Positions 7,957 to 43,697 of a DNA stretch of 50,670 bases are shown one piece after another (within the stretch, counting starts at the first letter, position 1; each line of letters opens with the position of its first letter). Origin of the DNA: a virus (Duplodnaviria > Caudoviricetes); the IMG/VR virus record IMGVR_UViG_3300030620_000009, positions 1 through 50,670 of that record; one strand, written 5' to 3'. The translations under genes were made by a program, and so were the position numbers. The notes under the pieces were generated by a model. It did no database searches. It had not been told where the DNA came from and saw nothing but the letters and a program-made list of their open reading frames with translations.

Positions 7957-8174
7957 GAGACCTCAGAACACCAGCGGTGCGGGAGAAGATCCACGAGGGT
8001 GGAATGTTCGCCCAAATGATGAACGACCCAGGATGCTCATGTCAGGTCACAACCTGCCTTGAGTGTCCTGGATGCTCCTACGAAGTCCCGGAGGAACTCA
8101 TTGCTCATTGCCCCAAGTGCGGTGAAGCAATTGGTACCTACGGGTGGGACGGTGTAGAACTGTTCGAGTCATGA
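7953..8174 (+). CDS. Cys-rich protein, paralog of ORF 1-361
   Basis: RDLRTPAVREKIHEG...CSCQVTTCLECPGCSYEVP. Confidence 0.65.
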   Translation: MRDLRTPAVREKIHEGGMFAQMMNDPGCSCQVTTCLECPGCSYEVPEELIAHCPKCGEAIGTYGWDGVELFES

Positions 8175-11434: not shown

Positions 11435-11851
11435 GTGAAGATCGTGGCTGACCATAGGTCACGCCGACAGAAGCTGCTTGCGGTTATCAACCCAAGATCA
11501 GGCGCGACTGATGGAGAGCGTGCAAACGCACAAGCCGCCCTCGACCGTGTGGATGCAAAGCGTCCTGCTGGAACGTTGTCTCGTGAGGATATCCTTGTTA
11601 GCCCTTCCCAGGAACAAGCTCAGGATCTCTTCGACCGTGCCGTCGATTATGTTGCTCGGAAGTATAAGGTAGACCCGGAAGACCTAAGAGCAGCCGACGA
11701 GTACTTCCGACGCGGAGGACATTCTTGCACTGACCCAGAGCACCAGGAGGGGTGGCACTTCCACGGCATGACACGTGTGCACAAGAACCCACCACGATAC
11801 CGTGAGGGTCAGAAGGTCCGTAGTAACTTCAGAGGGGTGAAGTCCACATGA
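11435..11851 (+). CDS. hypothetical protein with DUF2786-like N-terminus
   Basis: QKLLAVINPRSGATDGERANAQAAL. Confidence 0.55.
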   Translation: MKIVADHRSRRQKLLAVINPRSGATDGERANAQAALDRVDAKRPAGTLSREDILVSPSQEQAQDLFDRAVDYVARKYKVDPEDLRAADEYFRRGGHSCTDPEHQEGWHFHGMTRVHKNPPRYREGQKVRSNFRGVKST

Positions 11852-13044
11852 TCGAGAGCGGACAGCAACGTGATGTGGTAACACCCTTCCTAGAGTGGGA
11901 TCTTCCAGAAACCTCCTCCGGGGATGACCATATCGAGATACACACATCCGACCGAATCTTGTTCAAACGGTGCCGGCGGAAGTGGAACTGGCAAAGCAGC
12001 ATGCGGGAGAATCTTCTTCCCATCGGGCAGGCTGTTGCTCCCCTGTGGTTTGGAACCGGTTGGCACTTCCTGATGGAAGACTACCACGGGTACCAGAAGT
12101 ACCCGACGGTAGATCATGCCATCGTTGCCTTCAAGGATGCGCACAACGCGCGTGAGCTTCCAGACGATCCTAGGGCTTTGCTGGACCTCATGGCAGGCAT
12201 GGCACATTACTACACCGAGGATTGGTTGACATACCATCCAGAACCTTACAAGACCCTGTGGGTGAGCGGGATTCCACAGGTTGAGGTCGACATTGACATC
12301 GACATCACTGACCGACTTCATACCAGATGCTGGGATCGGTACGGTGATTCGGATTGGCTGGAAGGAGTTCTTCAAGGTCGACCTGTCATCTACCGCATGA
12401 CCTTGGATAGGGTGGCAATCGACGAACACGACCTTGTGTACGTTATCGACTATAAGACCGCCCGGCAGGTCGATACCAACAAGCTCTCCAACGACCCTCA
12501 AGTTAGTGCGTACTTCTGGGGTGCGGCCGAGTTCTATGGTGACCGACTCGGTGGTGTTGTTTGGCAGCAACATCTGAAGTCCTTCCCCGAAGACCCTGAG
12601 TGGTTACACTCCTCGCAGCGTTTCAGCATGAATAGGCAGCAGTGCAGGTCTACGTACCCACTGTACCGAAAGGCACTGAAGGAGAAGTACGGCAGGATTC
12701 CAGCGCAGTACGTTGAGTTCCTTGACTGGCTCGCTGAGCAGCAGGGTGACTGGGGCGACCGCTTCGTTCGTCGTGACATTATCCGTCGGAATCCGCATGC
12801 AAGGAGGGCAGAAGAGCAGAAGATACTCGACGAGGTCCTAGATATGCTTGATCCGGGACTTCCACTGTACCCAAACCCGACACGTGACTGTACATGGGAC
12901 TGTCCGTTCAAAGATCCGTGCATTGCAATGGATGACGGCAGCGATATGGACTTCCTCTTGAAGACCTCCTACGAGAAGTGGAAGGGGTACAAGCAGGATT
13001 GGAAGAAGCGTGTCATTCTCCCTGATGGATCGAGGTACGCATGA
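11848..13044 (+). CDS. PD-(D/E)XK exonuclease, Cas4/AddB-like with Fe-S Cys
   Basis: HTSDRILFKRCRRKW, LDRV, IDYKT, C-terminal CTWDCPFKDPC. Confidence 0.85.
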   Translation: MIESGQQRDVVTPFLEWDLPETSSGDDHIEIHTSDRILFKRCRRKWNWQSSMRENLLPIGQAVAPLWFGTGWHFLMEDYHGYQKYPTVDHAIVAFKDAHNARELPDDPRALLDLMAGMAHYYTEDWLTYHPEPYKTLWVSGIPQVEVDIDIDITDRLHTRCWDRYGDSDWLEGVLQGRPVIYRMTLDRVAIDEHDLVYVIDYKTARQVDTNKLSNDPQVSAYFWGAAEFYGDRLGGVVWQQHLKSFPEDPEWLHSSQRFSMNRQQCRSTYPLYRKALKEKYGRIPAQYVEFLDWLAEQQGDWGDRFVRRDIIRRNPHARRAEEQKILDEVLDMLDPGLPLYPNPTRDCTWDCPFKDPCIAMDDGSDMDFLLKTSYEKWKGYKQDWKKRVILPDGSRYA

Positions 13045-14045
13045 TCAACCAAGCGCCTCAGGCACCGCAAGCTACGGCTTTGGTGCAGGCGCCCGCAAAG
13101 CCGAAGTTCGAATTCACCACACCATTGGATGATGAATACCTCAACGCCCTGATCTACGGCGAGTATGGTGTTGGCAAGACCACATGTGCAGCAACTGCTG
13201 CAGACGTCCCAGAGATGCAGGACGTCCTGTACATCGCCGCCGAAGCGGGGGAGAAGGTTCTCAAGCCGTACGCCGCGCGCGGGCACCTCACAGTCGTTCG
13301 GGTCAATAAGTATGCGACGGTGGCCCGCGTCTTCGAGTGGATGGTCCTGCACTGCCGGTACAGGGATGCCGGTGAGACCGAGAAGCTGGCGCAGCTCGAG
13401 TCACTGATCACGGGTGTCGTTCCGACGAAGCCCAAGATGTTCCGGACGGTAGTTCTGGACTCACTCACTGAGATCCAGGTCTACCTGATGTACCAGCTGC
13501 TCGGCATTGAGATTGGCGGGACTCGTCTCGATCTTCCTCCGGATTCGCCGGAGTTCAAGGAGTGGGGGCAGTCTTCCGAGATGATCAAGCTTCTGATCCG
13601 GAGCTTCCGGGATCTGAAGTTGAACGTGATCATCGTGTGCAGCATGGAGGAGAAGGAGGACGAGAAGAAGCGACAACTGAAGCGTCTGCTCCTGCCAGGA
13701 AAGCTGGCCGTCAACGTCCAGGGATTCCTCGACGTCGTAGGATATCTGGACAAGGCCAAGACAGACGCCGGGCCAGCATGGCGACTATGGCTGACGAGTG
13801 GACAGACGTTCCACGCCAAGAACCGCTTTGGACCCACGGCACCTGAGTACATTGACGCACCGAACATGTCCAAGCTCTATGCACTGAACAACCCCAAGGA
13901 GACCACACCCGATGGCAGCAACACCACAGCCCGTCCGACGCCCAGCAGCAACCCCAACCCGACCCGCCCCACAAGCACCCCAGGCCGAGCCCCCGTCCGA
14001 GTCGGAAACGGAGGAAATCGACCCGTTCGCCCAGCAGGACGCTGA
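13041..14045 (+). CDS. AAA_24/Sak4-like ATPase (recombinase)
   Basis: LIYGEYGVGKTT, TVVLDSLTE, DVVGYL, AKNR. Confidence 0.85.
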   Translation: MINQAPQAPQATALVQAPAKPKFEFTTPLDDEYLNALIYGEYGVGKTTCAATAADVPEMQDVLYIAAEAGEKVLKPYAARGHLTVVRVNKYATVARVFEWMVLHCRYRDAGETEKLAQLESLITGVVPTKPKMFRTVVLDSLTEIQVYLMYQLLGIEIGGTRLDLPPDSPEFKEWGQSSEMIKLLIRSFRDLKLNVIIVCSMEEKEDEKKRQLKRLLLPGKLAVNVQGFLDVVGYLDKAKTDAGPAWRLWLTSGQTFHAKNRFGPTAPEYIDAPNMSKLYALNNPKETTPDGSNTTARPTPSSNPNPTRPTSTPGRAPVRVGNGGNRPVRPAGR

Positions 14046-14502
14046 GGCAGCTGCAGGAGTCGGCGACGACGAGGACCTTGAGAACGACGAGTTCGATCTC
14101 TCCGACGTCGAGGCGGTCAGCGGATTCGAGGTCTTCCCAGCCGGAACGTACGACTGCTTCATCGAGTCGTCGGAGTACAAGAAGTCAGCCAAGGGCAACC
14201 GCATGATCGCAAGCGTCCTTCTTGTTCGTCTTCCGGACGCAGAGGAGTACGGTCCGAACCGGCTGTTCCACCACGCGACCTTCGCCGAGAAGACTACGGG
14301 TCGCGCCAAGCATGATCTCAATGTCATGACCAACGGCGAGATCGATTGGGCGCACACACGCCCGGCCCAGATCGCCGAGACCCTTCCGGGTCGCTACTGC
14401 CGTGCCAAGGTGATCATCAAGAACGATGCCACCTACGGCAAGTCGAACAACATCCGGGAGATCCTGCCGCCGGCCGAAGCAATGGGAGGGTTCACCAACT
14501 AG
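13912..14502 (+). CDS. DUF669-like single-stranded DNA-binding protein
   Basis: FEVFPAGTYDCFI, KSAKGNRM, YGKSNNI; SD AAGGAG; follows exonuclease and AAA genes. Confidence 0.75.
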   Translation: MAATPQPVRRPAATPTRPAPQAPQAEPPSESETEEIDPFAQQDAEAAAGVGDDEDLENDEFDLSDVEAVSGFEVFPAGTYDCFIESSEYKKSAKGNRMIASVLLVRLPDAEEYGPNRLFHHATFAEKTTGRAKHDLNVMTNGEIDWAHTRPAQIAETLPGRYCRAKVIIKNDATYGKSNNIREILPPAEAMGGFTN

Positions 14503-14516
14503 TCCACCGCCGGGGA

Positions 14517-14651
14517 TGTTGTGCTGGTTCGTTGGAGTGTGATCGTAGGTTGCACTAACCGTCAACTATGCGCCGTGATTGGGCCGCGGACGTCACACCT
14601 GCCACGACTAACGATTGCCGGTCTATGGTGGCATCGGACGCCAGCATAACA
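14517..14651 (+). ncRNA. candidate multi-branched RNA leader upstream of endolysin
   Basis: closing stem TGTTGTGCTGG/CCAGCATAACA enclosing three hairpins. Confidence 0.45.
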
Positions 14652-14665
14652 GAATAGGAGGGAGT

Positions 14666-15694
14666 TTGGCGACCTACAGAGCAAAGCATCGTAGACAAGC
14701 CGCTGAAGGTACGTGGGCTGCAAAGTACGGCTGCACTGCAGTATCTGCACTCGTAGCAATGGACCAAGCGACCCGCGGTCGAGTCGGACCAGCAATCACT
14801 GCCGATCAGTTCCGTGGTAACCAACCAGACCAAGAGGGTGGAATCGATCTCCACGACGCGCGGATCGCTGCGAACTACTACGGCGTGTCGCTCGAGGTTC
14901 GTGCATCCTACGGTGGCACGACTCCTGCAACCTGGTCAGACTTCACAGCACTTGGACACCCTACAGCCCGCCGCGCCCTCATCGTCCAGGGCGACCATGA
15001 CCGTCTACCTGGAGCCCTCAGGTGTGCTGGGTTCTTGGGTGACCACGCCGTTATGTCGTCCGGTTGGCAGATCGTCGACGGGACTCGGGTCTGGGATATC
15101 AGTAATCCGTTGTGTGCTGGCTGGGTCACATGGCCGGACCACGTTATGAAGGCCTACGTCGAGGCTTTCGCAGGAAGCAATCGTGCATACGTGGCGGCAG
15201 CCCCGCCCACATCGGAGGAGGAAATGCTTGCTGTTGTCCAGGATATCGAAAGGTACCCAAGCCCCCGACACTTCACCGTAAGCAAGGGTACAACACTCAA
15301 CGGATACGACCCTGCCCAGCCTGGCAAAGTCGTCAAGACATTCACTGCCGCCGATGACACTGGTGCAAGGGCAATCGCAGCCGTCGCTATCTCGTGGCCT
15401 GGAACGGTACCAGCTCCAATTCCTCGCGGAGGTCCGTTCCTTCTCGTCGCCGACGGCACGCTCGCGGGCTTATACATCGTCGGTGCCCTCGTCACCCTTA
15501 GCCCCACTGCCCCTCCTGCGACAGGTGACTGCTCCCAGGCTGTTGCAGACGCAGTTGCGCCGCTCAAGGCAGAGATCGAAGACCTGAAAGATCAGGTAAT
15601 GGACGCGGAGCTTGACGCACGTCGCACAGAGTACGACAGGCTCAAGGCAGCCGCCACCGTCTCCATCAAGGTTGAACTCCCTGAGAGGCCATAG
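14666..15694 (+). CDS. probable endolysin with C39-like (papain-fold) cysteine peptidase domain
   Basis: RRQ...GCT...GDHA...SNPL motif order; TTG start with SD GGAGGG; followed by holin-like gene. Confidence 0.65.
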   Translation: MATYRAKHRRQAAEGTWAAKYGCTAVSALVAMDQATRGRVGPAITADQFRGNQPDQEGGIDLHDARIAANYYGVSLEVRASYGGTTPATWSDFTALGHPTARRALIVQGDHDRLPGALRCAGFLGDHAVMSSGWQIVDGTRVWDISNPLCAGWVTWPDHVMKAYVEAFAGSNRAYVAAAPPTSEEEMLAVVQDIERYPSPRHFTVSKGTTLNGYDPAQPGKVVKTFTAADDTGARAIAAVAISWPGTVPAPIPRGGPFLLVADGTLAGLYIVGALVTLSPTAPPATGDCSQAVADAVAPLKAEIEDLKDQVMDAELDARRTEYDRLKAAATVSIKVELPERP

Positions 15695-15699
15695 GAGGA

Positions 15700-15912
15700 A
15701 TGAAGGTGGGTAACTACTCGCTGCGCAACATCTTCACCAAGGAGCCGGTCGCCATCGCAGGCGGACTCAGATCGGTCCTGTTCGTAGCCGTGCTGCTCGG
15801 AGCCGTGCTGCTCGACGAGAAGCAGCTAGCCGGGATCGCGCTCGCGCTCGAGCTCGTACTGGGCCTGTTCGCCCGGCAGTCCTCGACCGGCAACGCGAAC
15901 CTGCCAAAGTGA
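15700..15912 (+). CDS. holin (two TM)
   Basis: KEPVAI...two TMs...ARQS pattern; SD AGGAGG. Confidence 0.7.
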   Translation: MKVGNYSLRNIFTKEPVAIAGGLRSVLFVAVLLGAVLLDEKQLAGIALALELVLGLFARQSSTGNANLPK

Positions 15913-16640
15913 AGGCAGTTGCCCTCCTCTCAGGCGGGCTTGACTCGACAACCCTTGCCTACTATCTCAGGTCCAAGTACGATGCCGAACTAACCTGCCT
16001 GTCCTTCGACTATGGCCAACGCCACAAGAGGGAACTCAGGGCCGCGAAGGAGATCGCCGAAGAGCTCGGGGCTGAACATCACACCGTTGAGCTGCGCGTC
16101 CAAGTCCCACCGCTGGAGCACCTCGTCACCAAAGGTCTCGGCTACATCCTCGGCGGCAGCGCACTTACTGACGAATCAGTCCCCGTTCCCGACGGGCACT
16201 ACGCTGAGGAGTCAATGAAGCAGACGATTGTTCCTAACCGGAACGCGATCATGCTTTCCATTGCCTACGGAGTTGCCGTGGCACGCGGCGCGGAGATGGT
16301 GGCCTTTGCTGCCCACTCTGGTGATCATGCTATCTACCCAGACTGCCGTCCGGAGTTTGTCGAGTATCTGAACTTGGCACTCCGAACTGGGAACACTTGG
16401 GCGACTCCTCAACCTGACCTAGTTGGTCCGTTCCTTCACATGACCAAGAGTGACATTGCCGGGATGGCACGTGACTTAGCAGTTCCAATCGAGAGGACCT
16501 GGTCTTGCTACAAGGGGGAGGAGTATCACTGTGGCGTCTGCGGAACGTGCTACGAAAGGCGGGAGGCCTTCGAAGAAGCGGGAATTGTCGACCCAACTTA
16601 CTACGTCGACAATACCACCCGCTTCGCAGCTCCCTCTTGA
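15909..16640 (+). CDS. queC: 7-cyano-7-deazaguanine synthase
   Basis: LLSGGLDSTT, FDYGQRH, VPNRN, YPDCRPEF, TWSCY...HCGVCGTC. Confidence 0.97.
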   Translation: MKAVALLSGGLDSTTLAYYLRSKYDAELTCLSFDYGQRHKRELRAAKEIAEELGAEHHTVELRVQVPPLEHLVTKGLGYILGGSALTDESVPVPDGHYAEESMKQTIVPNRNAIMLSIAYGVAVARGAEMVAFAAHSGDHAIYPDCRPEFVEYLNLALRTGNTWATPQPDLVGPFLHMTKSDIAGMARDLAVPIERTWSCYKGEEYHCGVCGTCYERREAFEEAGIVDPTYYVDNTTRFAAPS

Positions 16641-16839
16641 GTTTGGAGAGGAGGTCGAGGTAGTTGTCCGATATAGAGGGCAGACGTGGACCGTGAAGGG
16701 CAGCGTCCGCGAGGTCTCCCTGGACCGTGATATTGAGGACATTTCAGGTCCGTACGATGTGTGGTCCGAGTACCGCCCTTCGGGTATTGTTCGATTGGGT
16801 ATTGTTCTGGATCAGAGAAAGGCACTTCTGGAGACATGA
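16531..16839 (+). CDS. hypothetical protein overlapping queC 3' end
   Basis: SD GGAGGAG 7 nt before GTG 16531; ATGA coupling downstream. Confidence 0.5.
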   Translation: MASAERATKGGRPSKKRELSTQLTTSTIPPASQLPLEFGEEVEVVVRYRGQTWTVKGSVREVSLDRDIEDISGPYDVWSEYRPSGIVRLGIVLDQRKALLET

Positions 16840-16976
16840 GCAAGTCCCAGTGGGAGAAGTGTAAGCACAACACCGTCCATAGGATAGAGCAGACCACCAG
16901 ATCTGGTGGGGGCTTCACTGTGTGGAAGTGTTCAACTTGTGGGCTCGAGTTCAAGCCCACCACGAACAAGAACTGA
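16836..16976 (+). CDS. small Zn-ribbon protein
   Basis: CKH...WKCSTCG. Confidence 0.5.
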   Translation: MSKSQWEKCKHNTVHRIEQTTRSGGGFTVWKCSTCGLEFKPTTNKN

Positions 16977-16979
16977 CTC

Positions 16980-17096
16980 ATGAAGTGGGTTCATGCCAAG
17001 GACCCTGAAGATAAGCATCCCGTCGATCCACACTACGCCGCAGATGGTAAGTGGGTGTGTAACACTTGCCGTGAACCGATAAGGGAGGCTAAGTGA
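16980..17096 (+). CDS. 38-aa His/Cys peptide
   Basis: MKWVHAKDPEDKHPVDPHYAADGKWVCNTCREPIREAK; GTGA coupling to next gene. Confidence 0.45.
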   Translation: MKWVHAKDPEDKHPVDPHYAADGKWVCNTCREPIREAK

Positions 17097-17551
17097 ACAG
17101 TCCAGATTGGGGATCGCTAGAATCGATCCAGAAGCAGGCACACGAGATTGCGCAGACACATGGATGGTGGGACACCGCAGACGACTGCAATGTCCCGACT
17201 AAGCTAGCTCTGGCAGCCGGCGAGTTGGTCGGCGAGGCGCTCGAGACCTTCCGGGCCAACAAGATGGAGTTGTACTACCAGTACAAGAACCCGGAGACGG
17301 GTAAACTCCAGAGGATCACGCCGGAGATCCATGCGGAGATGCTTCGGCAGGAGGCGGCGCTTCAGGAAGGTCAGCGGCAGTATAAGCAGGGGGATTTCAA
17401 GCCAGCAGGATTCGGGATCGAACTGGCGGATGCAATCATTCGAATTGGGGACCTTGCTGAGTGGCTCGACATTGACCTTCAGCAGATGGTTCACATCAAG
17501 CAGAACTTCAACAGGACGCGCCCAATGAGACACGGAGGCAAGAAGGTTTGA
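17093..17551 (+). CDS. MazG-like all-alpha NTP pyrophosphatase
   Basis: KLALAAGELVGEALE...IELADAIIRIGDL...NRTRPMRHGGK. Confidence 0.85.
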   Translation: MNSPDWGSLESIQKQAHEIAQTHGWWDTADDCNVPTKLALAAGELVGEALETFRANKMELYYQYKNPETGKLQRITPEIHAEMLRQEAALQEGQRQYKQGDFKPAGFGIELADAIIRIGDLAEWLDIDLQQMVHIKQNFNRTRPMRHGGKKV

Positions 17552-18069
17552 CGTCAATCAGCAAGACGTTCGACTTCCACGCTGCACACCGTCTTCCCAA
17601 CCACGACGGGAAGTGCCGACGCCTCCATGGCCATACCTACCGTGTTGACATTATGATCACGGGTAACATTATCGACACGGAAGGCGACAGTAGCCAGGCA
17701 ATGGTGATCGACTTTGGAGTCCTGAAGGACATCTGGAAGGGGTTCGACGAACACCTTGATCACCACGCCCTCCTCTGGGACAAGGACCCCCTCGTTGATC
17801 TTATCAACGCCGGCGTAGGAAGCTTGGAGGAGTATGGAATTGAGGTTACACCAGTTCCACCTACTGCTGAACACATCGCTGAGATGATCTTCCGAAACCT
17901 GTGGGCGGCACTCGCTGAGCGGCCAGAACCTGTTATCCTGGACGCTGTCCGTGTCTGGGAGACTCCAACCTCGTGGGCGCTATTCGACGGTCGGCACATT
18001 CACATCATTCAGGGCTACGACCCTGGTGCCCCTGAGGGTGACCGAACAGTTATCAGCAAGGTGAACTAA
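17548..18069 (+). CDS. queD: 6-carboxytetrahydropterin synthase
   Basis: FHAAHRL...CRRLHGHTY, DFG, LDH, PTAE, VWETPTSWA. Confidence 0.95.
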   Translation: MTSISKTFDFHAAHRLPNHDGKCRRLHGHTYRVDIMITGNIIDTEGDSSQAMVIDFGVLKDIWKGFDEHLDHHALLWDKDPLVDLINAGVGSLEEYGIEVTPVPPTAEHIAEMIFRNLWAALAERPEPVILDAVRVWETPTSWALFDGRHIHIIQGYDPGAPEGDRTVISKVN

Positions 18070-18839
18070 TGACCACCGATGAGCGTCGATTCGCGGTGGT
18101 GGAGATCTTCGGGCCGACTCTGCAAGGAGAGGGGGCACTAGCGGGAGTGCCTTCACACTTCATCAGGTTTGGTGGATGCGACTTCTCCTGCCACTGGTGT
18201 GACTCCGCACATGCTGTCCTGCCAGAGAACGTACGTCAAGCATCCAAGATGCTGACTGATGAGATCATCATTGCCGTCCTAGAGCTCCGGGATCTGTCGG
18301 CAGATTGGGTGACCCTTTCTGGTGGTAATCCTGCACTGCATGACTTGGGCAAACTCGTGGAGGCGCTACACTCCCTACAGTTCAAGGTGGCAGTCGAGAC
18401 TCAAGGTTCAATGTGGAAGGACTGGCTCTCCTACGTTGATCAGCTTACAGTTAGCCCAAAGCCACCGAGTAGCCGAATGTCCAATGAGTACCTGCCAACC
18501 TTCATGAAGAAGGCTATTGGGGTGGAAGGTAAACACTACACCGATGTACACTCCGAGCGAGCAACCATCTGCTTGAAGGTGCCGGTGTATGATGAGGACG
18601 ACCTCGACTTCGCACTTGGCGTTCATTGGTCGTATCCGGATGTTCCGTTCTACATCAGCATCGTGACCGAAATGGGAGGACTTCGTGGGGACTTCGCCGA
18701 CGGAAGAGTCGACACCGCCGAATCGCTCCTCACCCGCTACCAGCGTGTCGTCCAAGACGTCCTCCGCCGTGGAGTCTCCGACGTCCGAATCCTTCCGCAG
18801 CTCCACTACCTCATCTGGGGGAATCGAACAGGTGTCTGA
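18069..18839 (+). CDS. queE: 7-carboxy-7-deazaguanine synthase (radical SAM)
   Basis: EIFGPTLQGEG, CDFSCHWCD, SGGNP, VETQG, VSPKP, LPQLH. Confidence 0.96.
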   Translation: MTTDERRFAVVEIFGPTLQGEGALAGVPSHFIRFGGCDFSCHWCDSAHAVLPENVRQASKMLTDEIIIAVLELRDLSADWVTLSGGNPALHDLGKLVEALHSLQFKVAVETQGSMWKDWLSYVDQLTVSPKPPSSRMSNEYLPTFMKKAIGVEGKHYTDVHSERATICLKVPVYDEDDLDFALGVHWSYPDVPFYISIVTEMGGLRGDFADGRVDTAESLLTRYQRVVQDVLRRGVSDVRILPQLHYLIWGNRTGV

Positions 18840-19407
18840 CGACGAACCCTTCGACAGCATGGTCAAACACGCAGATAGCATTCTGCAGATTCTGGTTGGC
18901 CCAACGTACAGCAGTGAGCACTTCAAGGACACACCGACAAGGTACGTCAGGATGTTAGCGTCGTTTACGCAGTACACGGAGGCTAACCTTGCTGCCATCC
19001 TCAAGGCAGGATTCGAAGAAACTCAGGACAACATCCTCGTTACCCAACGTCACATCCCCTTTGCAGGTCTTTGTGCACACCACCTACTCCCCTTCTGGGG
19101 AGAGGCCCGACTTGGTTATTTACCCCGGAAGCGGGTCGTCGGACTCTCCAAGTTGGCACGGCTCGTGTTTGCTGCAGGGCGTGTTGCGCCTGGTACCCAG
19201 GAACACATCACCAACCTGATTGCTGACACCCTCTACGACACCCTCGAGCCAATCGGGGTCGGGGTCATAACAACTGCAGCCCATGGCTGTATGGCAGTGC
19301 GAGGTGTAAATGCTCCACAGACTGTAACACAGGTCAATGCGCTTCGTGGCCAAATGCTCCTGAACCCGCAAGCGCGGGCGGAGTTCATGCAAACAGTACA
19401 GGAGTAG
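18832..19407 (+). CDS. folE: GTP cyclohydrolase I
   Basis: DTPTR, LCAHHLLPFWG, GLSKLAR, QE, HGCMAVRGV. Confidence 0.93.
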   Translation: MSDDEPFDSMVKHADSILQILVGPTYSSEHFKDTPTRYVRMLASFTQYTEANLAAILKAGFEETQDNILVTQRHIPFAGLCAHHLLPFWGEARLGYLPRKRVVGLSKLARLVFAAGRVAPGTQEHITNLIADTLYDTLEPIGVGVITTAAHGCMAVRGVNAPQTVTQVNALRGQMLLNPQARAEFMQTVQE

Positions 19408-19411
19408 AACG

Positions 19412-19816
19412 GTGCAGGAGAAGGACGAGACCAGTGGCGAAGACCAGCCTCAGGAAGGACAAGCCAGTTCGACGGAAGAAGCCACAGAAGGAGCGGCCGC
19501 AGGCACTCCGGAAGAGGCAGTCGGCGGAGAGACAGACCAGAAGGATAGTGAAGAGGGAGCGTCGGAAGCTCCTGAAGGAGGAGAGGACACTTCGGGAGAG
19601 GTTGGCGGCCCTGAATCCGAGGCAGAGGAAGCCGAAGGCGAAGGTGGAGACGACAGCGCCGACAGTGGATCCGACGCTGAAGGGGAAGGCGAGAGCGAAG
19701 GCGAAGAAGGAACTCCGGAGCTCTGTGGAGTCGACGGTTGTGTCCGACCACCCCACCCCGCGACGCCGCTCGCGCACTCCTTCGGTCGACAGACCGGCCG
19801 AGACCTCCTCGGGTAG
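19412..19816 (+). CDS. highly acidic protein with C-terminal Cys/His motif
   Basis: SD AGGAG after folE stop; TAG/GTG overlap with next gene; CGVDGC...H...H. Confidence 0.5.
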   Translation: MQEKDETSGEDQPQEGQASSTEEATEGAAAGTPEEAVGGETDQKDSEEGASEAPEGGEDTSGEVGGPESEAEEAEGEGGDDSADSGSDAEGEGESEGEEGTPELCGVDGCVRPPHPATPLAHSFGRQTGRDLLG

Positions 19817-19859
19817 TGTCAGCCAGCGAAAGGTACCTAGCCCTCCTAGAGGAGGCTAG
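19434..19859 (+). CDS. highly basic Arg/Lys-rich protein in overlapping frame
   Basis: open +1 frame with G-ending codons typical of this genome; purine-rich SD-like sequence. Confidence 0.35.
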   Translation: MAKTSLRKDKPVRRKKPQKERPQALRKRQSAERQTRRIVKRERRKLLKEERTLRERLAALNPRQRKPKAKVETTAPTVDPTLKGKARAKAKKELRSSVESTVVSDHPTPRRRSRTPSVDRPAETSSGSVSQRKVPSPPRGG

Positions 19860-20223
19860 TGACCTTCATACCCGCAAGAATCGTGGGTATGCCGGGGATA
19901 GCCCTGACCCCTGGATCAACTTCCGGGGGTCAGAGCGTCTTGGCATTCCGGCATCTGTAGGTTGCGTCATAAGGCTCCAAGACAAAGTTGCACGTGTCGA
20001 GAACCTCATCCGCAATCCAAACAACGATCAGGTCAATGAGTCCATTCGGGACACACTAATGGACCTGGCAGCCTACAGCTACATTGCCATCTGCTTGTTG
20101 GAGGAGGAATGGGCAAGAGAGGAATCAACGTTCCCGAAGACCTCTCCTGCGTCGGACAATACTACCACGACTCAACCGTTGAGGAGTACTACGCCAGTGC
20201 TGCAGATCGGGACGCCAGAGTGA
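19816..20223 (+). CDS. DUF1599/nucleotide-modification-associated domain 1 (all-alpha NTP-PPase-like)
   Basis: KNRGYA...DPWINF...RLQDKVAR...ESIRDTLMDLAAY. Confidence 0.8.
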   Translation: MSASERYLALLEEASDLHTRKNRGYAGDSPDPWINFRGSERLGIPASVGCVIRLQDKVARVENLIRNPNNDQVNESIRDTLMDLAAYSYIAICLLEEEWAREESTFPKTSPASDNTTTTQPLRSTTPVLQIGTPE

Positions 20224-20340
20224 GTCAGCTGCAGTCGCTGGGGCGCTTCCCGGTGCGGTACTTCACAAGCAGCAACGTGCGTTTGGGGTTGACTAGTGTG
20301 TGGGGTCTCCGTTGGACTGAGCCGCGAGGGGAGGACTTGG

Positions 20341-21132
20341 ATGCAATTCGCGCCGGTAGCTAACCTGGCCGGCTACGATCGCCTTGAGGAGTTGGGTCTG
20401 CTTGGAAGTTACCATCTGCTTATTGCGACCGAGGTGGTCAAGGACGTTAGCGCATGGGAGAACTTCTGGTTGGTCCGCGGACCAGTAGATGGAGACCCCG
20501 AGCGCTTCGTTATCATGGACAATGGGCTGATCGAGACAGGCGTTCCAACTGACCCGCAGACACTGAAGGAGGCGGCAGATGCTGTAGAGGCTACCTGCAT
20601 TGTCCTTCCGGATGTTCTGCGGGACTACCACAAGACCCTGAAGGTTGTGTCGGCAGCACTGCCAGAGCTGCAGCGAACGGGATATCCGCTGATGGGGGTG
20701 GTGCAAGGGCGTACATGGGAGGAAGTTGACTACATTGTCGACTTCTACCAGCGGGTTGGAGTTCAGTTTCTTTCAATCCCACGTGTGATGGTAGAAATCT
20801 TCGGATCACGTGTTCCGCTGGTTCACCGCTTCCGACACCGTGGAATGCCGATCCACCTGTTGGGGTTCAGCGAGAACATGTGGGACGATGTCGTCTCTGC
20901 GACCATGTCAGGTGTAATAGGGCTTGACAGTGCGGTTCCCTTGTGGTACCACACATCACTTCCCGAGAGGCCACCTCTGAATGCCGACTTCGGTCGTCGC
21001 CCAAGAGACTACTGGACGACCCCAGGAGATGCGTTCAACTACGACAATGTGGGGAAAGTACGACAGTGGCTGATAGATGCACTGGATGCCCGTACACAGG
21101 AGGAGCGGCAGGGACACGTGGTGACCCCTTAG
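20341..21132 (+). CDS. divergent TGT-fold deazaguanine transglycosylase (DpdA-like)
   Basis: IMDNG, VLPDVL, MGVVQG, LSIP, IHLLG, LDSAVP in TGT motif order; within preQ0 cluster. Confidence 0.75.
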   Translation: MQFAPVANLAGYDRLEELGLLGSYHLLIATEVVKDVSAWENFWLVRGPVDGDPERFVIMDNGLIETGVPTDPQTLKEAADAVEATCIVLPDVLRDYHKTLKVVSAALPELQRTGYPLMGVVQGRTWEEVDYIVDFYQRVGVQFLSIPRVMVEIFGSRVPLVHRFRHRGMPIHLLGFSENMWDDVVSATMSGVIGLDSAVPLWYHTSLPERPPLNADFGRRPRDYWTTPGDAFNYDNVGKVRQWLIDALDARTQEERQGHVVTP

Positions 21133-23450
21133 CTCCGGTCTGTGTCGTTGGAGAAGCACCTGGGGCGGAAGAGCTGCGCACTGGAGTTCCATTCGTCGGG
21201 CAGTCTGGGCGGCTACTCTCAAGAGCACTGATGAAGGTTGGTATCGATGAGGGTCAAGTCTACTTCACGAACGCACTCCGCTGTAGACCTCCAATCGGAC
21301 AAGCCCCGCCGAGGGAGGCGATTGAAGCGTGTCGTTCCCGTCTACTCAGTGAGGTGGGCAGTACACAACGCCGAGTTGTTATCGCCCTTGGCAACTCAGC
21401 AGTGCGCTCGCTACTCAATAACCATTCGCTCAAGATCACGGCGGAGCGTGGTAAGGCTTTCCCGTCCGAACGGGGCGTGGTCGTTGCAGCTCTCCACCCC
21501 GCAGCAGTTCTTCGAGCTTTCGGAGAGTATCCTCGCTTCCTTGCCGACCTTCGTTACGCAGCTGGCTTCCTTGACGGCCAGCAGATCAAGTCTCCTGGAA
21601 CAACCCGCTGGGACCTCGTCACCCCCTTCAACATTCACCGTGTCGTAGACGTCCTCCTCAAGCAGCCCCACCTTGGTGCTGACGTCGAGACCGGCGGGTT
21701 CAATCCAAGATCTGACCTGCTTCTGGTCCTCTCGGTTGCATGGACCACAAACAGGGTTGCTGTCTTTCCAATGCATCACCCACTTGATCGAGAGCGCAAC
21801 CTCCTCGAGCCTTACCACCCACTCGGGCACTCATTCTGGAAGCTCATAAGATACTTCCTTGAGGCCCAGGGACCGCGGTGGATCTGGCACAATGGTAAGT
21901 TCGACACTGCGTTCTTCCACACCTTAGGCATCGACGCTCGGGTCGACGAAGACTGCATGTTGATGCATTATACCCTCAACGAACAGCGCGGCACACACGA
22001 CCTCGCGCAGCTGGGTGGAGATTATCTTGGGGCTCCCAACTGGAAGGATGCAATGGCTCAGGAGGCCATCGCGAAGGGGTACATCAAGAGCAAGCAGGAA
22101 TCATTCGCAAAGATTCCACCATCGATCCTGTACCCCTACAACGCCCGTGACGCAGATGTCACACTACAGCTGTTCCACGAACTGAAGAAGGTGATCACCA
22201 AGCGGCGGAACCTCGGTCTGCCGAAGTTGTATGAGCACCTCCTGATCCCATCTTCCAAGTTCCTCCAGGAAGTAGAGCACACTGGAATGTGGGTGTCGAC
22301 TGAGTACTTAGATCAGGCAGATGAGGTCTACCAGGCACGCGCTGAAGCCGAGCGGTACGACATCCTGAAGGTTGTTGAACCGTTGTGGGACCCACAAGTT
22401 TACGCCAAGACAACGGGTGCTGTCAAGGTCCCTCTGGTGTTCAATCCCGGTAGCCCCAAGCAGAAGCTGTACATCCTCCGTGACGTACTAGGACATCGCA
22501 TTGTCAACACACGTGCAGCGACCCTCGAGGCACTTCCGAAGAACGATCTCGTTGACGCCCTCATGAAGTGGATGAAGACCAACAAGGTAATCACCACCTA
22601 CATCCGTGGAGTTCAGGAGCGCATCGATGAGGATGGGCGAGTTCACGCTACGTATCTTATCCACGGAACTACGACGGGGCGTCTCTCTTCGCGGAACCCC
22701 AATATGCAGAACGTCCCTCGCGACCCGTACGTCAGGAATATCTTCCAAGCTCCTGAAGGTCGGATCCTTGTGGAGCTTGACTACAGTCAAGTGGAACTCC
22801 GGGTTCTTGCAGTCTTCTCGGACGACGCATTCCTGAAGAGTGTTTACCGGGAAGGCCGTGACCTCCACGACGAGGTGTCCACTGCACTCTTCGGTCCCAA
22901 TTTCAGCTCTGAACAAAGAATCAGAGCTAAGTTCCTGAACTTCGGAATCGCTTACGGACGCGGCCCAAAGTCAATTCACGAAGAGTTCGGAATGCCTATT
23001 GAAGAGGCATCAAAGATGATTCGTGATTGGTTCAGAAGGGCACCTCAAGCCGCTTCTTACATCGACGAATGTCGTCGAGCTCCTATAGAAGGGCGTCAGC
23101 TGAAGACTCCCTTTGGACGTAGAAGGCGTTTCACCTTGGTGACGCGGAACAACCTGGTCCCCATCCAGAATGAAGCCGTCAACTTTGCCATTCAAAGCAC
23201 TGCCTCAGATTTGACCCTTTTGAGTGCAATAAGGATGCGAGATCGCTTGGTCAATAAGTGGGAGGCTCACGTAACGAATCTCGTTCATGACTCAATTCTG
23301 GTGGAGGCTCCTGAGGATGGGGACTTGGATGGAATGATCGCTTACGCCAAGGAGGTCATGCAGCAGTTGCCGACCACCATTCTACATACCGACGTCCCCT
23401 TTGAGGTGGACGCTAAGGTGGGGAAGAAATGGGGAGACTTCAAGGGATGA
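21066..23450 (+). CDS. family-4 uracil-DNA glycosylase domain fused to family A DNA polymerase
   Basis: UDG: CTGC, GEAPG, PFVG, TNALRCRPP, LHPA; Exo: DVET, HNGKFD, YNARD; Pol: DYSQVELR, RAKFLNFGIAYG, VHDSI. Confidence 0.93.
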   Translation: MADRCTGCPYTGGAAGTRGDPLAPVCVVGEAPGAEELRTGVPFVGQSGRLLSRALMKVGIDEGQVYFTNALRCRPPIGQAPPREAIEACRSRLLSEVGSTQRRVVIALGNSAVRSLLNNHSLKITAERGKAFPSERGVVVAALHPAAVLRAFGEYPRFLADLRYAAGFLDGQQIKSPGTTRWDLVTPFNIHRVVDVLLKQPHLGADVETGGFNPRSDLLLVLSVAWTTNRVAVFPMHHPLDRERNLLEPYHPLGHSFWKLIRYFLEAQGPRWIWHNGKFDTAFFHTLGIDARVDEDCMLMHYTLNEQRGTHDLAQLGGDYLGAPNWKDAMAQEAIAKGYIKSKQESFAKIPPSILYPYNARDADVTLQLFHELKKVITKRRNLGLPKLYEHLLIPSSKFLQEVEHTGMWVSTEYLDQADEVYQARAEAERYDILKVVEPLWDPQVYAKTTGAVKVPLVFNPGSPKQKLYILRDVLGHRIVNTRAATLEALPKNDLVDALMKWMKTNKVITTYIRGVQERIDEDGRVHATYLIHGTTTGRLSSRNPNMQNVPRDPYVRNIFQAPEGRILVELDYSQVELRVLAVFSDDAFLKSVYREGRDLHDEVSTALFGPNFSSEQRIRAKFLNFGIAYGRGPKSIHEEFGMPIEEASKMIRDWFRRAPQAASYIDECRRAPIEGRQLKTPFGRRRRFTLVTRNNLVPIQNEAVNFAIQSTASDLTLLSAIRMRDRLVNKWEAHVTNLVHDSILVEAPEDGDLDGMIAYAKEVMQQLPTTILHTDVPFEVDAKVGKKWGDFKG

Positions 23451-24453: not shown

Positions 24454-27400
24454 CTACGTTACTAGCCACGGACTTGATACGGCAAACAGGATCTTCTGGG
24501 GTGAAGTTACACCAAAGACCTGTTCTCCGAACTCTTCGGCGTATGTCTGGAGGTCTGCTACGTCCCAGCCATGCCAGGTTGTACATAGAGGATCACCAAC
24601 GATGATGCGGCCGCTTACCTGAGACGGTAAGAGAATGATTGCATGGTTGTCCTCGAAGTTTGCCTGGCACTTTACGTAGGTTGGTAGCTCTCCATAGTCT
24701 CCTTGGAGGATGACTGCCCTTCCTTCACCTAGAGCACTAAGAACTTGCGCCCAAGTCTGCCCGCTACGAACACCGAGAACCTGATTCCAGTGCCGCCATG
24801 CCTGTCGAACATTGTCCAGGCTTGTACCTGGACTACCGCTTGCACCGCCAATGTCGGCCTCACTCTTTCCGCACCACGGTATAAGTTCACCGCCCCAGAC
24901 TTGTGTAGCTCCACGTGTCTGCCAATCGAGAGCCATCGCGCCCGCTTCAAGGGTGCAGATGAAGGCGTCTAAGGTTGTTGTTGGATCACCAATCTGACGG
25001 CGGAAGATCGGCAGGTAATGCGGAGTGAAGGGTAGGAACCCCCCGCATGCAGCGCAGGTACCAGGAGGAGGAGCGGTATCGATTCTCTTGCGTCCTGTTA
25101 GCCTGTTTACAAGCCAGAAGATTCCGTGTGGCTCATTGTGGCTTGGATCCTCTACCTCAGTCTCCTGGTTGAACTGGGCCTGAATCTGCTGTGTGAGTTC
25201 TGGAAACTGAGCAGACGTGATATTGAATGTAAGTTGCAGCTTCTCGTCCGGACCAGGAAGCATAGCGGCTACGTCATCATAGAAGGGGTAAGTATCAGGA
25301 GGCCCGAAGGTGGTGTTCGGGTCATTGTCGTTCGAACTGTGACTTACCAGAACGGTACCAACATAATCTGGGCCGCTAGGCTGGTTTGGTTCCCAATTGC
25401 CTTGCTCCAGTTGGTAACTGCTTTCCTCATCGCCAACGTCACCAGACAGCATGGATGAGCCCTTGACCCGAACAGAGAGGACCTCAATAACGTCGGGGTC
25501 AAGCTCTTCAGGTTGGGCATACGTCAGGAATGTACGACGACGAATGCCTCCGGGTGGGTTAGGAAGTCCATTGAAGCCATTGACGTGTTCATCATGCGGA
25601 ACATCCGTATATGCAGTCCCGTGGGTCCACTCATACTCCTCAGTTATGAAGTTCCATGAGACGGCCCAGATGTCTGACGGGTTGTTGATTGTATCCTGAA
25701 CCTCAACCTGCTCTGTCTCATTCTCCAAAGTCGACTCACCGCAGAGATCGAGTGGTGGGTCTCCTTGTGAGATCGTGATGCTCTGGAAGCGAACCTCAGC
25801 TGCTACGCTGCCAGCTGTCAGCTGAATGAATGTGTCCGTTAGATTACCGTCACCGTCAGCCTGCTCGTCCCATGAAGATGGTTCAGTTCCCTGCCACAGT
25901 CGGACAAAGGTTCGCTGCAAGGTTCCGCCGAAGGGTCCAGCTCCAGGAGTTTCCTCATACCGAAACCTTACGCCAAATGCCTGGTTCCAGTCAATTCCGC
26001 TAACAGGAACAATTATACCGGAGAAGTCGTACTCATCGTCTGTAGGTCTAATCTCTACGTAGGGCCCTGAGTGGTCAATCAGAAGGGTCGCATCCGTAAA
26101 GCTACCCACGAATCTAACTGAGTAGGCAACTTCGTAGGGAACCCCTAGTGGCTCAAAGCCTTCTAGGACATCGCAAGCAGCAGTCGTGAACTTTGCGTCA
26201 GCTGCTGATAGACGTCCTTCGCCGGTGAGGACTTCGACCACCGACGACAAACCGGCGGGATCATCTGTATTGTGCGACCAAGAGGGTGGAGTACCGGGAG
26301 TTGAGGGTTCACCCCAATCTCCTACTGAATCATCCTCGAAGTCTTCCCATGTACAAGTGGATTCACCACCGCATCCCAACTCCTCAAGGGTGTTAGGATC
26401 TGCTGGAGCGACCTTGAAGTCATCGAACTGCCAAAGAATGACCTCGTCTTCGTCATTCTCGCTTGTAACAGCGAAGTAAGTTGTAAGGGTGAAGTCACCC
26501 ATTGGATCGAACCACGTTCCATCGTCAGCTTCAAGACTCCAACCAGGCTTTACTTCGCCGTCCCTCCATACACGAACAGCCTTGCGGGCATTCGATCCGT
26601 TCTTTGCAACGAGCAGTTCAACAGTATGCCATGCACCTGTCACCCAGTCAGTCTTCTCGAACTGGCCGTTGTCGTGATCTACGAAACCTGCCCAGGAGGG
26701 AGGTTCGGTACTGACATCCATCTGTAGATCGGTCGTGTAAGCGCCTGTACCGATAGACCAATCTACCCTGGTGGTATCAAAGGCTCCGTAGGCCCGTGTA
26801 AACCGGAACCGGAAAGAGTAAATGCATGAGTCAAGCCAAACCGAGTTGGCGTCCCCGGGTATCGCAAGCTCTTCGATATGGGTGACCAGGATGTCGCCGT
26901 CATTGAATTGAGCCCAGCCAACACCTGCATTCACGATCGCCAAGATGGAAGCGTGACTACTCTCATTGTACTCAACACCACACGACGCTGTATCCCATCC
27001 GGTCGTATTACGATCGTTGAAGTCGTCGATAATAAACAAACTACCGGCCTGACCGAGCTCATTGCAGCAATCGCATGAGGGAACAGGATCAGGAGTCGGT
27101 GGGTCATCACGTGGGCCAAAGACGTGAACAGCCTTCGACCGACCCTTGTAATGTGAACGTTGGAAGAACGGCCCACGCAGCTCGGAGTCGTGAAGGGTTG
27201 GACTACGCTCATCGACGTAGATGGCGTGCCCACGGCCTCTATATCTGGCCCCCTCAGCTGATAATGGGCCAGTGGGGACAACTGAGGTGAGTTGATTGTC
27301 TACATGGATGATTCGTTCGCCGTGGTAACCAGGCTTCGAGAAGCCAGTAGCAGGTGTTCCTACGAGAGCCGAGATACCTCTAGCTGTCGGGGCAATTCCT

Positions 27401-29370: not shown

Positions 29371-29578
29371 GGCGATGCCACGGGCGAGGGGAGCGTCGCT
29401 CTGCGTTTAGGTCATGCCACGGCCAACCGTCGAGCCAGAAGATGACGCGCTTCCACCACGGAGTCTGAAGAGTATCGAAGCGCTGATCGTGGTCCGACAG
29501 GCGCTGCTCAAGAACACTAATACGTGCCTCGAAGGACTCGGTGATCACACGAGCCTCTTCCGAGAGGTACTGCATCAC
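29360..29578 (-). CDS. small coiled-coil protein
   Basis: coupled ORF; EARISVLEQRL, PWWKR. Confidence 0.5.
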   Translation of the reverse strand: MMQYLSEEARVITESFEARISVLEQRLSDHDQRFDTLQTPWWKRVIFWLDGWPWHDLNAERRSPRPWHRHGD

Positions 29579-41550: not shown

Positions 41551-41561
41551 CTCAAGCCGGA

Positions 41562-42176: not shown

Positions 42177-42207
42177 CGGTGATTCCTCCTGCCTCTATTG
42201 TGAATTG

Positions 42208-42284
42208 ACCTTGTGGAGACCCCAACCCGTCTCTAAGGACACGCCGCGATCCTCGAGCGTGCAGGGTTAGAGTCTCCACGAGGT
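42208..42284 (-). ncRNA. structured intergenic RNA element after capsid genes
   Basis: 16-bp stem GTGGAGACTCTAACCC/GGGTTGGGGTCTCCAC with two G-U pairs on minus strand, enclosing an inner hairpin. Confidence 0.5.
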
Positions 42285-42318
42285 GGCCCAAACTACGGCG
42301 TACATCTGGGCCATCACG

Positions 42319-43685: not shown

Positions 43686-43697
43686 GTCTCGGCCTCC

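Follow-up and report, generated by a model that had tools for sequence, protein, structure and literature searches.

7-Deazaguanine DNA is among the chief means by which phages evade restriction enzymes and certain CRISPR nucleases. The que genes belong to the tRNA queuosine pathway; FolE, QueD, QueE and QueC convert GTP to the base 7-cyano-7-deazaguanine (preQ0), an established set of enzyme functions, and enzymes of the tRNA-guanine transglycosylase (TGT)/DpdA superfamily exchange guanine for a 7-deazaguanine via a covalent aspartyl-ribose intermediate. Here we analyze a locus that encodes such a pathway together with a small TGT-fold enzyme and a DNA polymerase, in the IMG/VR virus record IMGVR_UViG_3300030620_000009 (50,670 bp, CheckV completeness ~91%; "the window" below means this whole stretch). 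The locus represents a type of system already described, namely a DpdA3-type deazaguanine module that includes the complete preQ0 pathway. We lean, without strong conviction, towards reading it as a module with which a tailed soil phage hypermodifies its DNA, preQ0 being exchanged into that DNA as an anti-restriction mark.

Among the described systems closest to this locus, bDpdA/DpdA1 (Salmonella Montevideo dpd cluster, PDB 7UI4; phages 9g, CAjan and iggy) has an enzyme of the same superfamily and shares with the window system an inferred double-displacement chemistry, a precursor made by FolE-QueD-QueE-QueC and a proposed role in protection against restriction. The three active-site aspartates of bDpdA are reported to be invariant in TGT and DpdA, and a Zn site (CxCx2Cx22H) and four insertions in the barrel are given as conserved features of the DpdA family (PMC10164549). 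The window enzyme has neither this Zn site nor the insertions and is ~260 rather than ~400 aa long, and because the site and the insertions are missing it does not belong to bDpdA/DpdA1; the ParB-like ATPase partner of that system (DpdB) was likewise not found in a search of the record.

DpdA3 is the subfamily associated with full replacement of guanine, yet no reconstitution of its activity is known, and published work assigns only a few phages to it. Among the papers listed by a full-text search, the term "DpdA3" is applied to phages only in Hutinet et al., 2023 (NAR, PMC10516641) and its preprint, the others being on yeast. There the protein CGPG_00065 of Cellulophaga phage phiST, whose 259-aa gene separates the deazaguanine genes from the polymerase region in the phiST record, is named DpdA3. 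Like the window enzyme, it has ~260 aa, a minimal TGT-like barrel, and "DN" and "(I/T)DS" motifs that align with those of the window protein, and its gene stands between deazaguanine genes and a polymerase gene with a MazG gene nearby. The two proteins are only 19% identical, and tblastn with each found 11 (phiST) and 3 (window) phage records with no overlap, so that BLAST provides no direct link. The two modules also differ in content: phiST has no QueC and makes 2′-deoxy-7-deazaguanosine (dDG), whereas QueC is encoded in the window and a DpdL-like second QueD is not, and the gene beside DpdA3 is an AAA_18 kinase-like gene in phiST but DUF1599 in the window.

Two further systems resemble other parts of the locus. 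The Z-genome cluster PurZ-MazZ-DatZ of cyanophage S-2L (Czernecki et al., 2021, PMC8342488) holds, as the window does, a MazG-like pyrophosphohydrolase within a base-replacement cluster, and is the model for how a base could be replaced before replication. Unlike S-2L, the window has no PurZ or DatZ, its replacement enzyme is a TGT-fold transglycosylase and not a nucleotide synthetase, and its MazG-like gene is not conserved among its relatives. The UDG-fused phage PolAs (N4-like, SPO1-like and SP15-like) described by Missoury et al., 2026 (PMC13697223) join an N-terminal UDG to an exonuclease and PolA, as in the window, whose protein keeps the UDG motifs A and B of the active SPO1-like and SP15-like enzymes. 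As that paper presents them, these fusions go with thymidine hypermodification or with no known modification, whereas the window fusion, which at 794 aa has no large insertions, goes with a deazaguanine module.

The Deazaguanine Gene Block

A model given only the letters and the open reading frames (ORFs) of the window had named a deazaguanine cluster in this region. The genes on which that original prediction rested are all present, on the plus strand:

15909–16640 (+): queC, 7-cyano-7-deazaguanine (preQ0) synthase, 243 aa; Pfam QueC, E 1.4e-60; TIGR00364, 189 bits (cut-off 150)
17093–17551 (+): MazG-like all-alpha nucleoside-triphosphate pyrophosphohydrolase, 152 aa; phrog_3301 "pyrophosphatase", E 6.9e-28
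17548–18069 (+): queD, 6-carboxytetrahydropterin synthase; Pfam PTPS, E 1.1e-33; TIGR03367, 87.9 bits (slightly below the cut-off, 89.25)
18069–18839 (+): queE, radical-SAM 7-carboxy-7-deazaguanine synthase; TIGR03365, 235.8 bits (cut-off 206); Radical_SAM, E 1.1e-7
18685–19407 (+, extent of the ORF): folE, GTP cyclohydrolase I; Pfam GTP_cyclohydroI, E 1.4e-45, the match beginning at ORF residue 62
19738 (TTG) or 19816 (GTG) to 20223 (+): DUF1599 / "nucleotide modification associated domain 1" protein; phrog_1485, E 1e-15
20341–21132 (+): candidate deazaguanine transglycosylase of the DpdA3 family, 263 aa; ATG start with a GAGG-type ribosome-binding site
21066–23450 (+): single protein that combines a family-4-type UDG, a 3′-5′ exonuclease and a family-A DNA polymerase, 794 aa; ORF open from 20943

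The preQ0 enzymes and the DpdA3-family barrel are thus encoded in close succession and in one direction, in a block whose last gene is the polymerase. A complete preQ0 pathway together with a TGT-superfamily enzyme coupled to UDG-PolA makes deazaguanine modification of DNA, as originally proposed, a sensible reading.

The DpdA3-Family Enzyme

The 263-aa protein has no useful direct match in Pfam (no family at E ≤ 1), NCBIfam, PHROG or PDB sequences. Pfam, NCBIfam and PHROG leave its branch of enzymes uncovered, and this branch proves to be very large and mostly unannotated: a scan of 1.84 billion cluster representatives returned 1129 relatives at E ≤ 0.001 (47 at E ≤ 1e-30), nearly all of 250–290 aa. 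Sixty-two sequences taken from these relatives form the family alignment and profile used here. D60, N61, E65, P90, D91, G175, D183, D196 and N236 are invariant in the alignment, D60 and N61 falling in a motif that reads "MDNG" in the window protein. This protein has a single Cys; CxCxxC is found nowhere in the family, in which one column is Cys in 48 of 62 rows.

An AF2 model built from the alignment is a (beta/alpha)8 barrel (pLDDT 95.6, pTM 0.92), and the top 50 Foldseek matches in the PDB are without exception tRNA-guanine transglycosylases (E from 1.3e-7, TM 0.48–0.59). Among the predicted viral structures of BFVD, the third-ranked match is a 259-aa protein of phage phiST (TM 0.68/0.69), which we take from its length and organism to be CGPG_00065. 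Profile comparison leads to the same protein: hhalign of the family profile against CGPG_00065 gives 98.4% and E 8e-15 over 222 columns, with the DN and (I/T)DS motifs in register. The profile reaches a protein of Bacillus phage BSP7 at 99.65% and E 5e-25, and phiST reaches the same BSP7 protein by tblastn. The BSP7 protein therefore bridges the window enzyme and phiST DpdA3, and the two fall into a single-linkage BLAST cluster that spans 82 loci. Against a TGT-annotated phage DpdA (Mufasa8), hhalign gives 0.1%.

More distant comparisons place the family in the wider superfamily. The best PDB match of the family profile is the DNA-guanine transglycosylase DpdA (7ui4_A, E 0.0026), with the HLLG and IDS regions aligned. 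The Pfam DpdA model PF23859 matches 3 of the 62 members weakly (best E 0.02), the DpdA4 model DUF6610 (PF20314) matches 7 of them weakly (best E 0.0024; 19.2 bits for the Youna2 protein and 17.3 bits for that of BSP7, where the cut-off is 27), and the TGT model PF01702 matches none. The window protein itself matches none of these models, neither PF23859 or TGT as a member of bDpdA/DpdA1 might, nor PF20314 as a member of DpdA4 might.

By profile and fold comparison, then, the 263-aa protein belongs to the DpdA3 branch of the TGT/DpdA superfamily. Features by which DpdA3 has been recognized are found in it: a TGT-like TIM-barrel that only remote-homology methods detect, encoded with 7-deazaguanine synthesis genes and beside a polymerase gene. 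It had been described as a divergent DpdA-like enzyme, with DNG in place of DSG and without the C-terminal Zn cysteines. Both observations stand, but the protein is no orphan: it is a full-length DpdA3 homologue, and the alignment indicates that "DN" for "DSG", a short chain and the lack of a Zn site characterize the branch as a whole and are not peculiar to this protein.

The putative active site can be read from the alignment and the model. D60, D91 and D196 are invariant in 62 of 62 members, and D196, in "IDS", aligns with the IDS of 7ui4_A. From their strand positions in the model we infer that D60 and D91 are the equivalents of Asp95 and Asp130 of bDpdA; D196 would be the nucleophile and D60 the general acid/base.

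A quick maximum-likelihood tree (SH-aLRT support, midpoint root; 11 of 84 rows dropped as identical duplicates, ORFs <200 aa excluded) places the window enzyme in a 55-row clade (SH-aLRT 98) that also holds the cultured Brevundimonas phages vB_BpoS-StAshley and MaInes, while phiST with MA9V-3, and Youna2 with BSP7, lie across the midpoint root from this clade. A scan of bacterial and archaeal genomes with the single protein, which can reach close relatives only, gave 51 pattern matches, none of them related.

Predicted Synthesis of PreQ0

FolE, QueD, QueE and QueC all match over or near the curated cut-offs of their families. QueC also gives a six-frame match of 203 bits and carries no fused glutamine amidotransferase domain. 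The true start of folE is probably GTG 18832 (GGGGGA upstream) or ATG 18859. For enzymes acting downstream of preQ0, six-frame family searches covered the whole ~91%-complete record. QueF was not found, the only signal being a T-fold cross-match inside FolE (18.7 bits, below the cut-off), and neither were TGT (PF01702), GATase_7, DUF5591/ArcS or Gat-QueC, which agrees with the original prediction that queF, arcS and Gat-queC are missing. Since QueF, ArcS, Gat-QueC and a canonical TGT were not found in these searches, preQ0 is the expected end product of the pathway.

Gene Order in Related Phages

An IMG/VR scan found 106 loci that encode a relative of the enzyme, of which the best 80 were fetched and searched by tblastn with the window proteins; the loci come from related phages, so the counts that follow are not independent events. 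The conserved layout is PD-(D/E)XK – AAA_24 – (DUF669) – QueC – QueD – QueE – FolE – DpdA3-like – UDG/PolA. Its most constant feature is at the downstream end, where the polymerase begins ≤700 bp after the DpdA3-like gene in 68 of the 77 loci with ≥800 bp of flank, 63 of these 68 having a UDG match; the nine exceptions are L008, L066, L068, L070, L072, L074, L079, L080 and L081. This near-obligate linkage of a DpdA3-like gene to a UDG-PolA gene is a contribution of the present analysis. Upstream, among the 60 loci with ≥5 kb of sequence, tblastn found QueC in 50, QueE in 51, FolE in 51 and QueD in 37; all four are present in 29 loci and QueC is missing in 10, these numbers being lower bounds given that tblastn is weak for the short QueD. 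The neighbors upstream of the que genes recur as well: PD-(D/E)XK in 46, AAA_24 in 47 and DUF669 in 19 of the 80 loci.

The same gene order is found in three cultured phages, Brevundimonas phage StAshley, Weizmannia phage Youna2 and Bacillus phage BSP7, in all of which the DpdA3-like gene is annotated "hypothetical protein". The arrangement thus spans hosts of the Pseudomonadota and Bacillota and, via phiST and MA9V-3, the Bacteroidota. The main texts of the Youna2 and MA9V-3 papers, searched by term, do not mention DNA modification. With the same module in cultured phages of the harmless hosts Brevundimonas, Weizmannia and Bacillus subtilis, there are convenient systems in which insertion at the level of DNA or of the nucleotide pool could be decided.

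Two observations on the relatives may be added. A Vut_1/YhhQ membrane protein, of the queuosine-precursor (preQ0) transporter family, is encoded 0.3–4.7 kb upstream of the DpdA3-like gene in nine loci (L069–L072, L076–L079 and L082), which suggests that some relatives import preQ0 or a related base. In the phiST RefSeq record NC_020842 (L003), 3.8 kb at 41524–45347 carry no annotated feature and CGPG_00063 is absent from the table; this is where Hutinet et al. place the polymerase gene in their account of the locus (PMC10516641). A tblastn search with the window PolA gave no match in 41524–45347.

The UDG-Polymerase Fusion

The fusion protein matches Pfam UDG (E 1.1e-27), DNA_pol_A_exo1 (E 3.2e-15) and DNA_pol_A (E 5.8e-74). 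Because there is no start codon between the stop of the DpdA-like gene and the conserved elements of the UDG domain, whose C-x2-C is encoded upstream of that stop, the start is most likely GTG 21066; the overlap of the two genes noticed in the original prediction then amounts to 67 nt. The UDG domain contains "VVGEAPG", "HPAAVLR" and "CTGC". GE[A/S]PG and HP, motif A and motif B of UDG enzymes, are kept in 36 relatives, E30 being nearly invariant and P32 and H144 invariant, and the N-terminal C-x2-C is conserved among the relatives. A complex prediction for DpdA3-like residues 1–258 with PolA residues 165–794, the UDG domain being excluded, scored 0.00; it gives no verdict and we attach no weight to it. 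Two relatives have longer UDG-PolA ORFs of 1092 aa (L063, 9677–12955) and 1162 aa (L081, 2390–5878), the others being ~800 aa, a difference that points to large insertions in the form of an intein or an additional domain.

Nucleotide-Pool Genes

The MazG-like protein has no Pfam match at all, the MazG model PF03819 included, and one source labels its homologues "NTP pyrophosphatase (non-canonical NTP hydrolase)", that is, nucleoside-triphosphate (NTP) pyrophosphatases. Searched against the PDB, a profile of 42 sequences scores best with the S-2L cyanophage MazZ (7ody_A; 37 residues aligned, E 8.2e-5) and next with 4qgp, another pyrophosphatase, and DCTPP1. Of the acidic residues expected to bind metal, the family keeps E44, E48, E110 and D113 without exception and E51 almost without exception. 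E110, D113, I116 and D120 align with E50, D53, I56 and D60 of MazZ. MazZ is specific for (d)GTP, contacts the guanine through I56 and D60, and feeds dGMP to nucleotide-level base conversion in Z-genome phages (PMC8342488). From this alignment, a preference of the window enzyme for dGTP is a lead.

The DUF1599 protein had been counted as a second NTP pyrophosphatase. Its family assignment is supported by sequence comparison (PF07659, E 9.9e-5 and 23 bits, below the cut-off of 25; Atlas score of 0.96 to DUF1599 clusters), and its AF2 model (pLDDT 87.9) is a four-helix bundle in which H19, K22, Y26, D32, N36, R54, K58, R61, E76 and D84 are the family invariants. No significant similarity ties it to pyrophosphatases: hhalign to the window MazG-like protein gives 0.4%, the EExxE acidic motif is missing, and Foldseek against the PDB returns nothing at E ≤ 0.001, some MazG-like entries appearing at E > 1. 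Of the two pyrophosphatases, then, the assignment is supported for the MazG-like protein, through phrog_3301 and the PDB profile matches, but not for DUF1599.

Across the relatives, genes of this type are recurrent yet non-orthologous, a further contribution of the present analysis. The MazG type of the window is found in none of the 80 related loci. MazG of the phiST type occurs in 16, mostly between QueC and the DpdA3-like gene. Eleven loci (L017, L019, L035, L036, L041, L044, L050, L053, L055, L061 and L062) encode a protein with an N-terminal PF18909 "dATP/dGTP diphosphohydrolase" domain (MazZ-2/DUF550-like), 3.6–6 kb downstream of the DpdA3-like gene and beside genes for ribonucleotide reductase (RNR) and ThyX; BLASTP shows no similarity between this protein and the window MazG-like protein. 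Phosphoribosyltransferases are encoded in seven loci. Deoxynucleoside kinase (dNK)/AAA_28-type kinases lie directly downstream of the DpdA3-like gene in L066 (9663–10295), L068 and L074, and an AAA_18/AAA_33 P-loop kinase-like gene lies directly before DpdA3 in phiST (CGPG_00066; L003, 46381–46860) and MA9V-3 (L087, 6528–6998). Weak P-loop matches are found just before the DpdA3-like gene in Youna2 (L002, 7408–7959), BSP7 (L086, 6339–6902), L011, L014 and L073. Hutinet et al. state, in their passage on this gene, that other deazaguanine phages lack homologues of CGPG_00066 (PMC10516641). In the window itself, six-frame searches with the AAA_18 and Pribosyltran models and the other ORFs scanned gave no nucleotide kinase, phosphoribosyltransferase or RNR, and none of the transporter, phosphoribosyltransferase, kinase and P-loop neighbors of the relatives is present. 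We propose that the MazG-like and DUF1599 proteins stand outside the core, as accessories of particular lineages with a role in adjusting the nucleotide pool; that none of the 80 loci has the window MazG type, and few have kinases or phosphoribosyltransferases, fits a mechanism for which base synthesis and the transglycosylase suffice.

The Level of the Proposed Base Exchange and Alternative Readings

In the mechanism that we favor, FolE, QueD, QueE and QueC would convert GTP to the free base preQ0, and the DpdA3-family enzyme would then swap guanine for preQ0, the D of "DN" serving as acid/base and the D of "IDS" as nucleophile. The substrate would be the phage DNA, during or just after its synthesis by the adjacent, translationally coupled UDG-PolA, and the outcome would be a restriction-resistant virion DNA in which 2′-deoxy-preQ0 (dPreQ0) replaces much or all of the deoxyguanosine (dG). 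To our knowledge no member of the TGT superfamily acts on mononucleotides, all characterized ones using a polynucleotide. This is one of three grounds on which we hold exchange on DNA to be more probable than exchange on nucleotides; the others are that base synthesis, barrel and polymerase are the only universally conserved parts of the module, and that no kinase for a modified monophosphate is encoded among the window ORFs scanned. dPreQ0 is the likely product because QueC is present and the downstream tailoring families that were searched were not found, and a high level of modification is probable because all three DpdA3 phages measured (CP220, phiST and vB_FspM_immuto_2-6A) are reported in Hutinet et al., 2023 (PMC10516641) to be completely modified.

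Several points weigh against this mechanism. No DpdA3 enzyme is known to be active on any substrate, and the tests of Hutinet et al. in E. coli are reported to have failed (PMC10516641); no ParB-like DpdB partner was found in a ParB_N search of the record; and the DpdA3-like family is mostly acidic (pI < 6 in 49 of 62 members), whereas a TGT-annotated phage DpdA has a pI of 9.0. Hydrolysis of dGTP by a MazZ-like enzyme would work against a mechanism in which dGTP has to be incorporated first, and pyrophosphatases of three unrelated families recur in the module (in 16 loci, in 11 loci and in the window), as do P-loop kinase-like genes directly beside DpdA3 in several lineages. Finally, the 55-row clade of the window enzyme is separate from phiST in the quick tree, and both the level and the identity of modification in this clade are predictions.

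Some of these points count in favor of a replacement of guanine before replication, as the original prediction had proposed: the MazG-like enzyme would make dGMP from dGTP, the transglycosylase would turn it into dPreQ0 monophosphate, host or phage kinases would raise this to the triphosphate, and PolA would incorporate it while dGTP is low. We regard this route as unlikely, though a serious competitor. It is not new, a modified-dGTP route having been proposed for Campylobacter phages in Hutinet et al., 2019 (PMC6884629), and in the passage of the 2023 paper that takes it up it is argued against only because a DpdA is present (PMC10516641). Two observations in the same paper speak for it: the replacement in the tested DpdA3 phages is complete, which in our view is easier to reach through the deoxynucleoside-triphosphate (dNTP) pool, and, in a report that the paper quotes, the 7-amido-7-deazaguanine (ADG) nucleoside was found in the cytoplasm of infected cells. 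To these the present analysis adds the MazZ match of the MazG-like protein with its aligned guanine-contacting residues, the PF18909 and phiST-type MazG genes of the relatives, the kinase genes directly beside DpdA3, and an acidic enzyme that has neither the Zn site nor the nucleic-acid-handling insertions of DpdA. The other side of the balance holds the want of any TGT-superfamily precedent on mononucleotides, the lack of a nucleotide kinase, phosphoribosyltransferase or RNR among the window ORFs scanned, and the absence of the window MazG type from the 80 related loci, which shows that dGTP depletion is no part of the conserved core; the MazZ similarity spans only 37 residues and does not establish specificity, and the phosphoribosyltransferases and kinases of the relatives may instead return salvaged guanine to GTP as the substrate of FolE, act as a DpdB-like ATPase, or supply dNTPs in general, next to RNR and ThyX. 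That DpdA3 enzymes in general work on the nucleotide pool and not on DNA, exchanging guanine on dGMP supplied by a MazZ-like pyrophosphatase, we think slightly more doubtful still. If it were true, exchange in the pool would explain the complete replacement of guanine in DpdA3 phages, UDG-PolA would build the modified genome directly, and this purine replacement would be pre-replicative by analogy with the Z-genome.

Readings that change the product or the target have less in their favor than DNA-level exchange of preQ0. The DNA may carry another derivative, such as 2′-deoxy-7-amido-7-deazaguanosine (dADG) or a further tailored base, or a low, site-specific level of modification, through an unrecognized tailoring enzyme or a sequence-specific transglycosylase; we consider this improbable. 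Precedent exists for both variants, since Salmonella phage 7-11 unexpectedly carried dADG and the DpdA subfamilies are reported to range from 0.02% to 100% modification (PMC6884629, PMC10516641), and the separation of the window clade from phiST and the several window ORFs without any family match leave room for them. QueF, ArcS/DUF5591 and GATase_7 were not found, however (DpdL, DpdM and DpdN were not searched for by model), and the unmatched ORFs are singletons among the 80 related loci. Least probable of all, and by our estimate very improbable, is an RNA target, with preQ0 made for the queuosine of host or phage tRNA and the TGT-fold enzyme acting as a tRNA-guanine transglycosylase. The que genes do belong to the queuosine pathway, and the best solved fold matches of the enzyme are tRNA-guanine transglycosylases; but the TGT Pfam model is unmatched in the window and in 62 of 62 family members, the enzyme has only 263 aa and no Zn subdomain or C-terminal parts, its gene is part of the replication module and in 68 of 77 loci stands immediately ahead of PolA, and its homologue family is found in phages whose DNA is, as reported in PMC10516641, fully modified.

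Genomic Setting and Other Genes

The right half of the window encodes, on the minus strand, a terminase, a portal, a head protease/capsid and tape-measure proteins, and the record is therefore that of a tailed phage. The stretch is present as assembled contigs in four soil-metagenome runs from two studies, with no RNA run among them. A blastn search of the region against 50,697 records returned short QueC matches alone, in four Arthrobacter phage records; by nucleotide similarity, a close cultured relative is absent from these records. The replication block occupies ~8.1–23.5 kb of the plus strand; the part before the que genes contains:

8144–9502 (+): SNF2-type helicase, which opens the replication block
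11848–13044 (+): PD-(D/E)XK exonuclease (Pfam match), upstream part of the conserved replication module
13041–14045 (+): AAA_24 ATPase (Pfam match), upstream part of the conserved replication module
13912–14502 (+): DUF669 protein (Pfam match), upstream part of the conserved replication module

Within the deazaguanine cluster lie further small ORFs:

16531–16839 (102 aa) and 16761–16976 (71 aa, with CxxC pairs) (+): two overlapping small ORFs, coding uncertain; no Pfam, PHROG or NCBIfam match
19412–19816 (+): orf134, a very acidic, low-complexity protein rich in E, G, S and D (pI 4.05); no family match

The stop of orf134 overlaps the possible GTG start of DUF1599 by one base, and a basic ORF (19434–19859, +, pI 11.9) overlaps it in another frame, so that either frame may be the coding one; it is conceivable that orf134 is an acidic, DNA-mimic-like protein. 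The small ORFs of the cluster had been put forward as candidates for further tailoring of the base. Since orf359, orf70, orf71/102, orf134/141 and orf106 have no counterpart in the 80 related loci, they are poor candidates for a core tailoring function.

Between DUF669 and QueC, orf359 (14615–15694, +) has Peptidase_C39-like clusters as its nearest Atlas neighbors (score 0.86) and is followed by a hydrophobic ORF of 70 aa (15700–15912, +); that the two resemble an inserted endolysin-holin pair is a lead. Upstream of the replication block, a 774-aa protein (3423–5747, +) without a PHROG match contains a DUF3854 domain (E 1.4e-13) and is possibly a primase/helicase of the replication module. Adjoining the tape-measure gene, two minus-strand ORFs of 1638 aa (24454–29370) and 626 aa (29575–31455) have no PHROG match at E ≤ 1e-5 and presumably encode tail or host-recognition proteins of an unsampled type.

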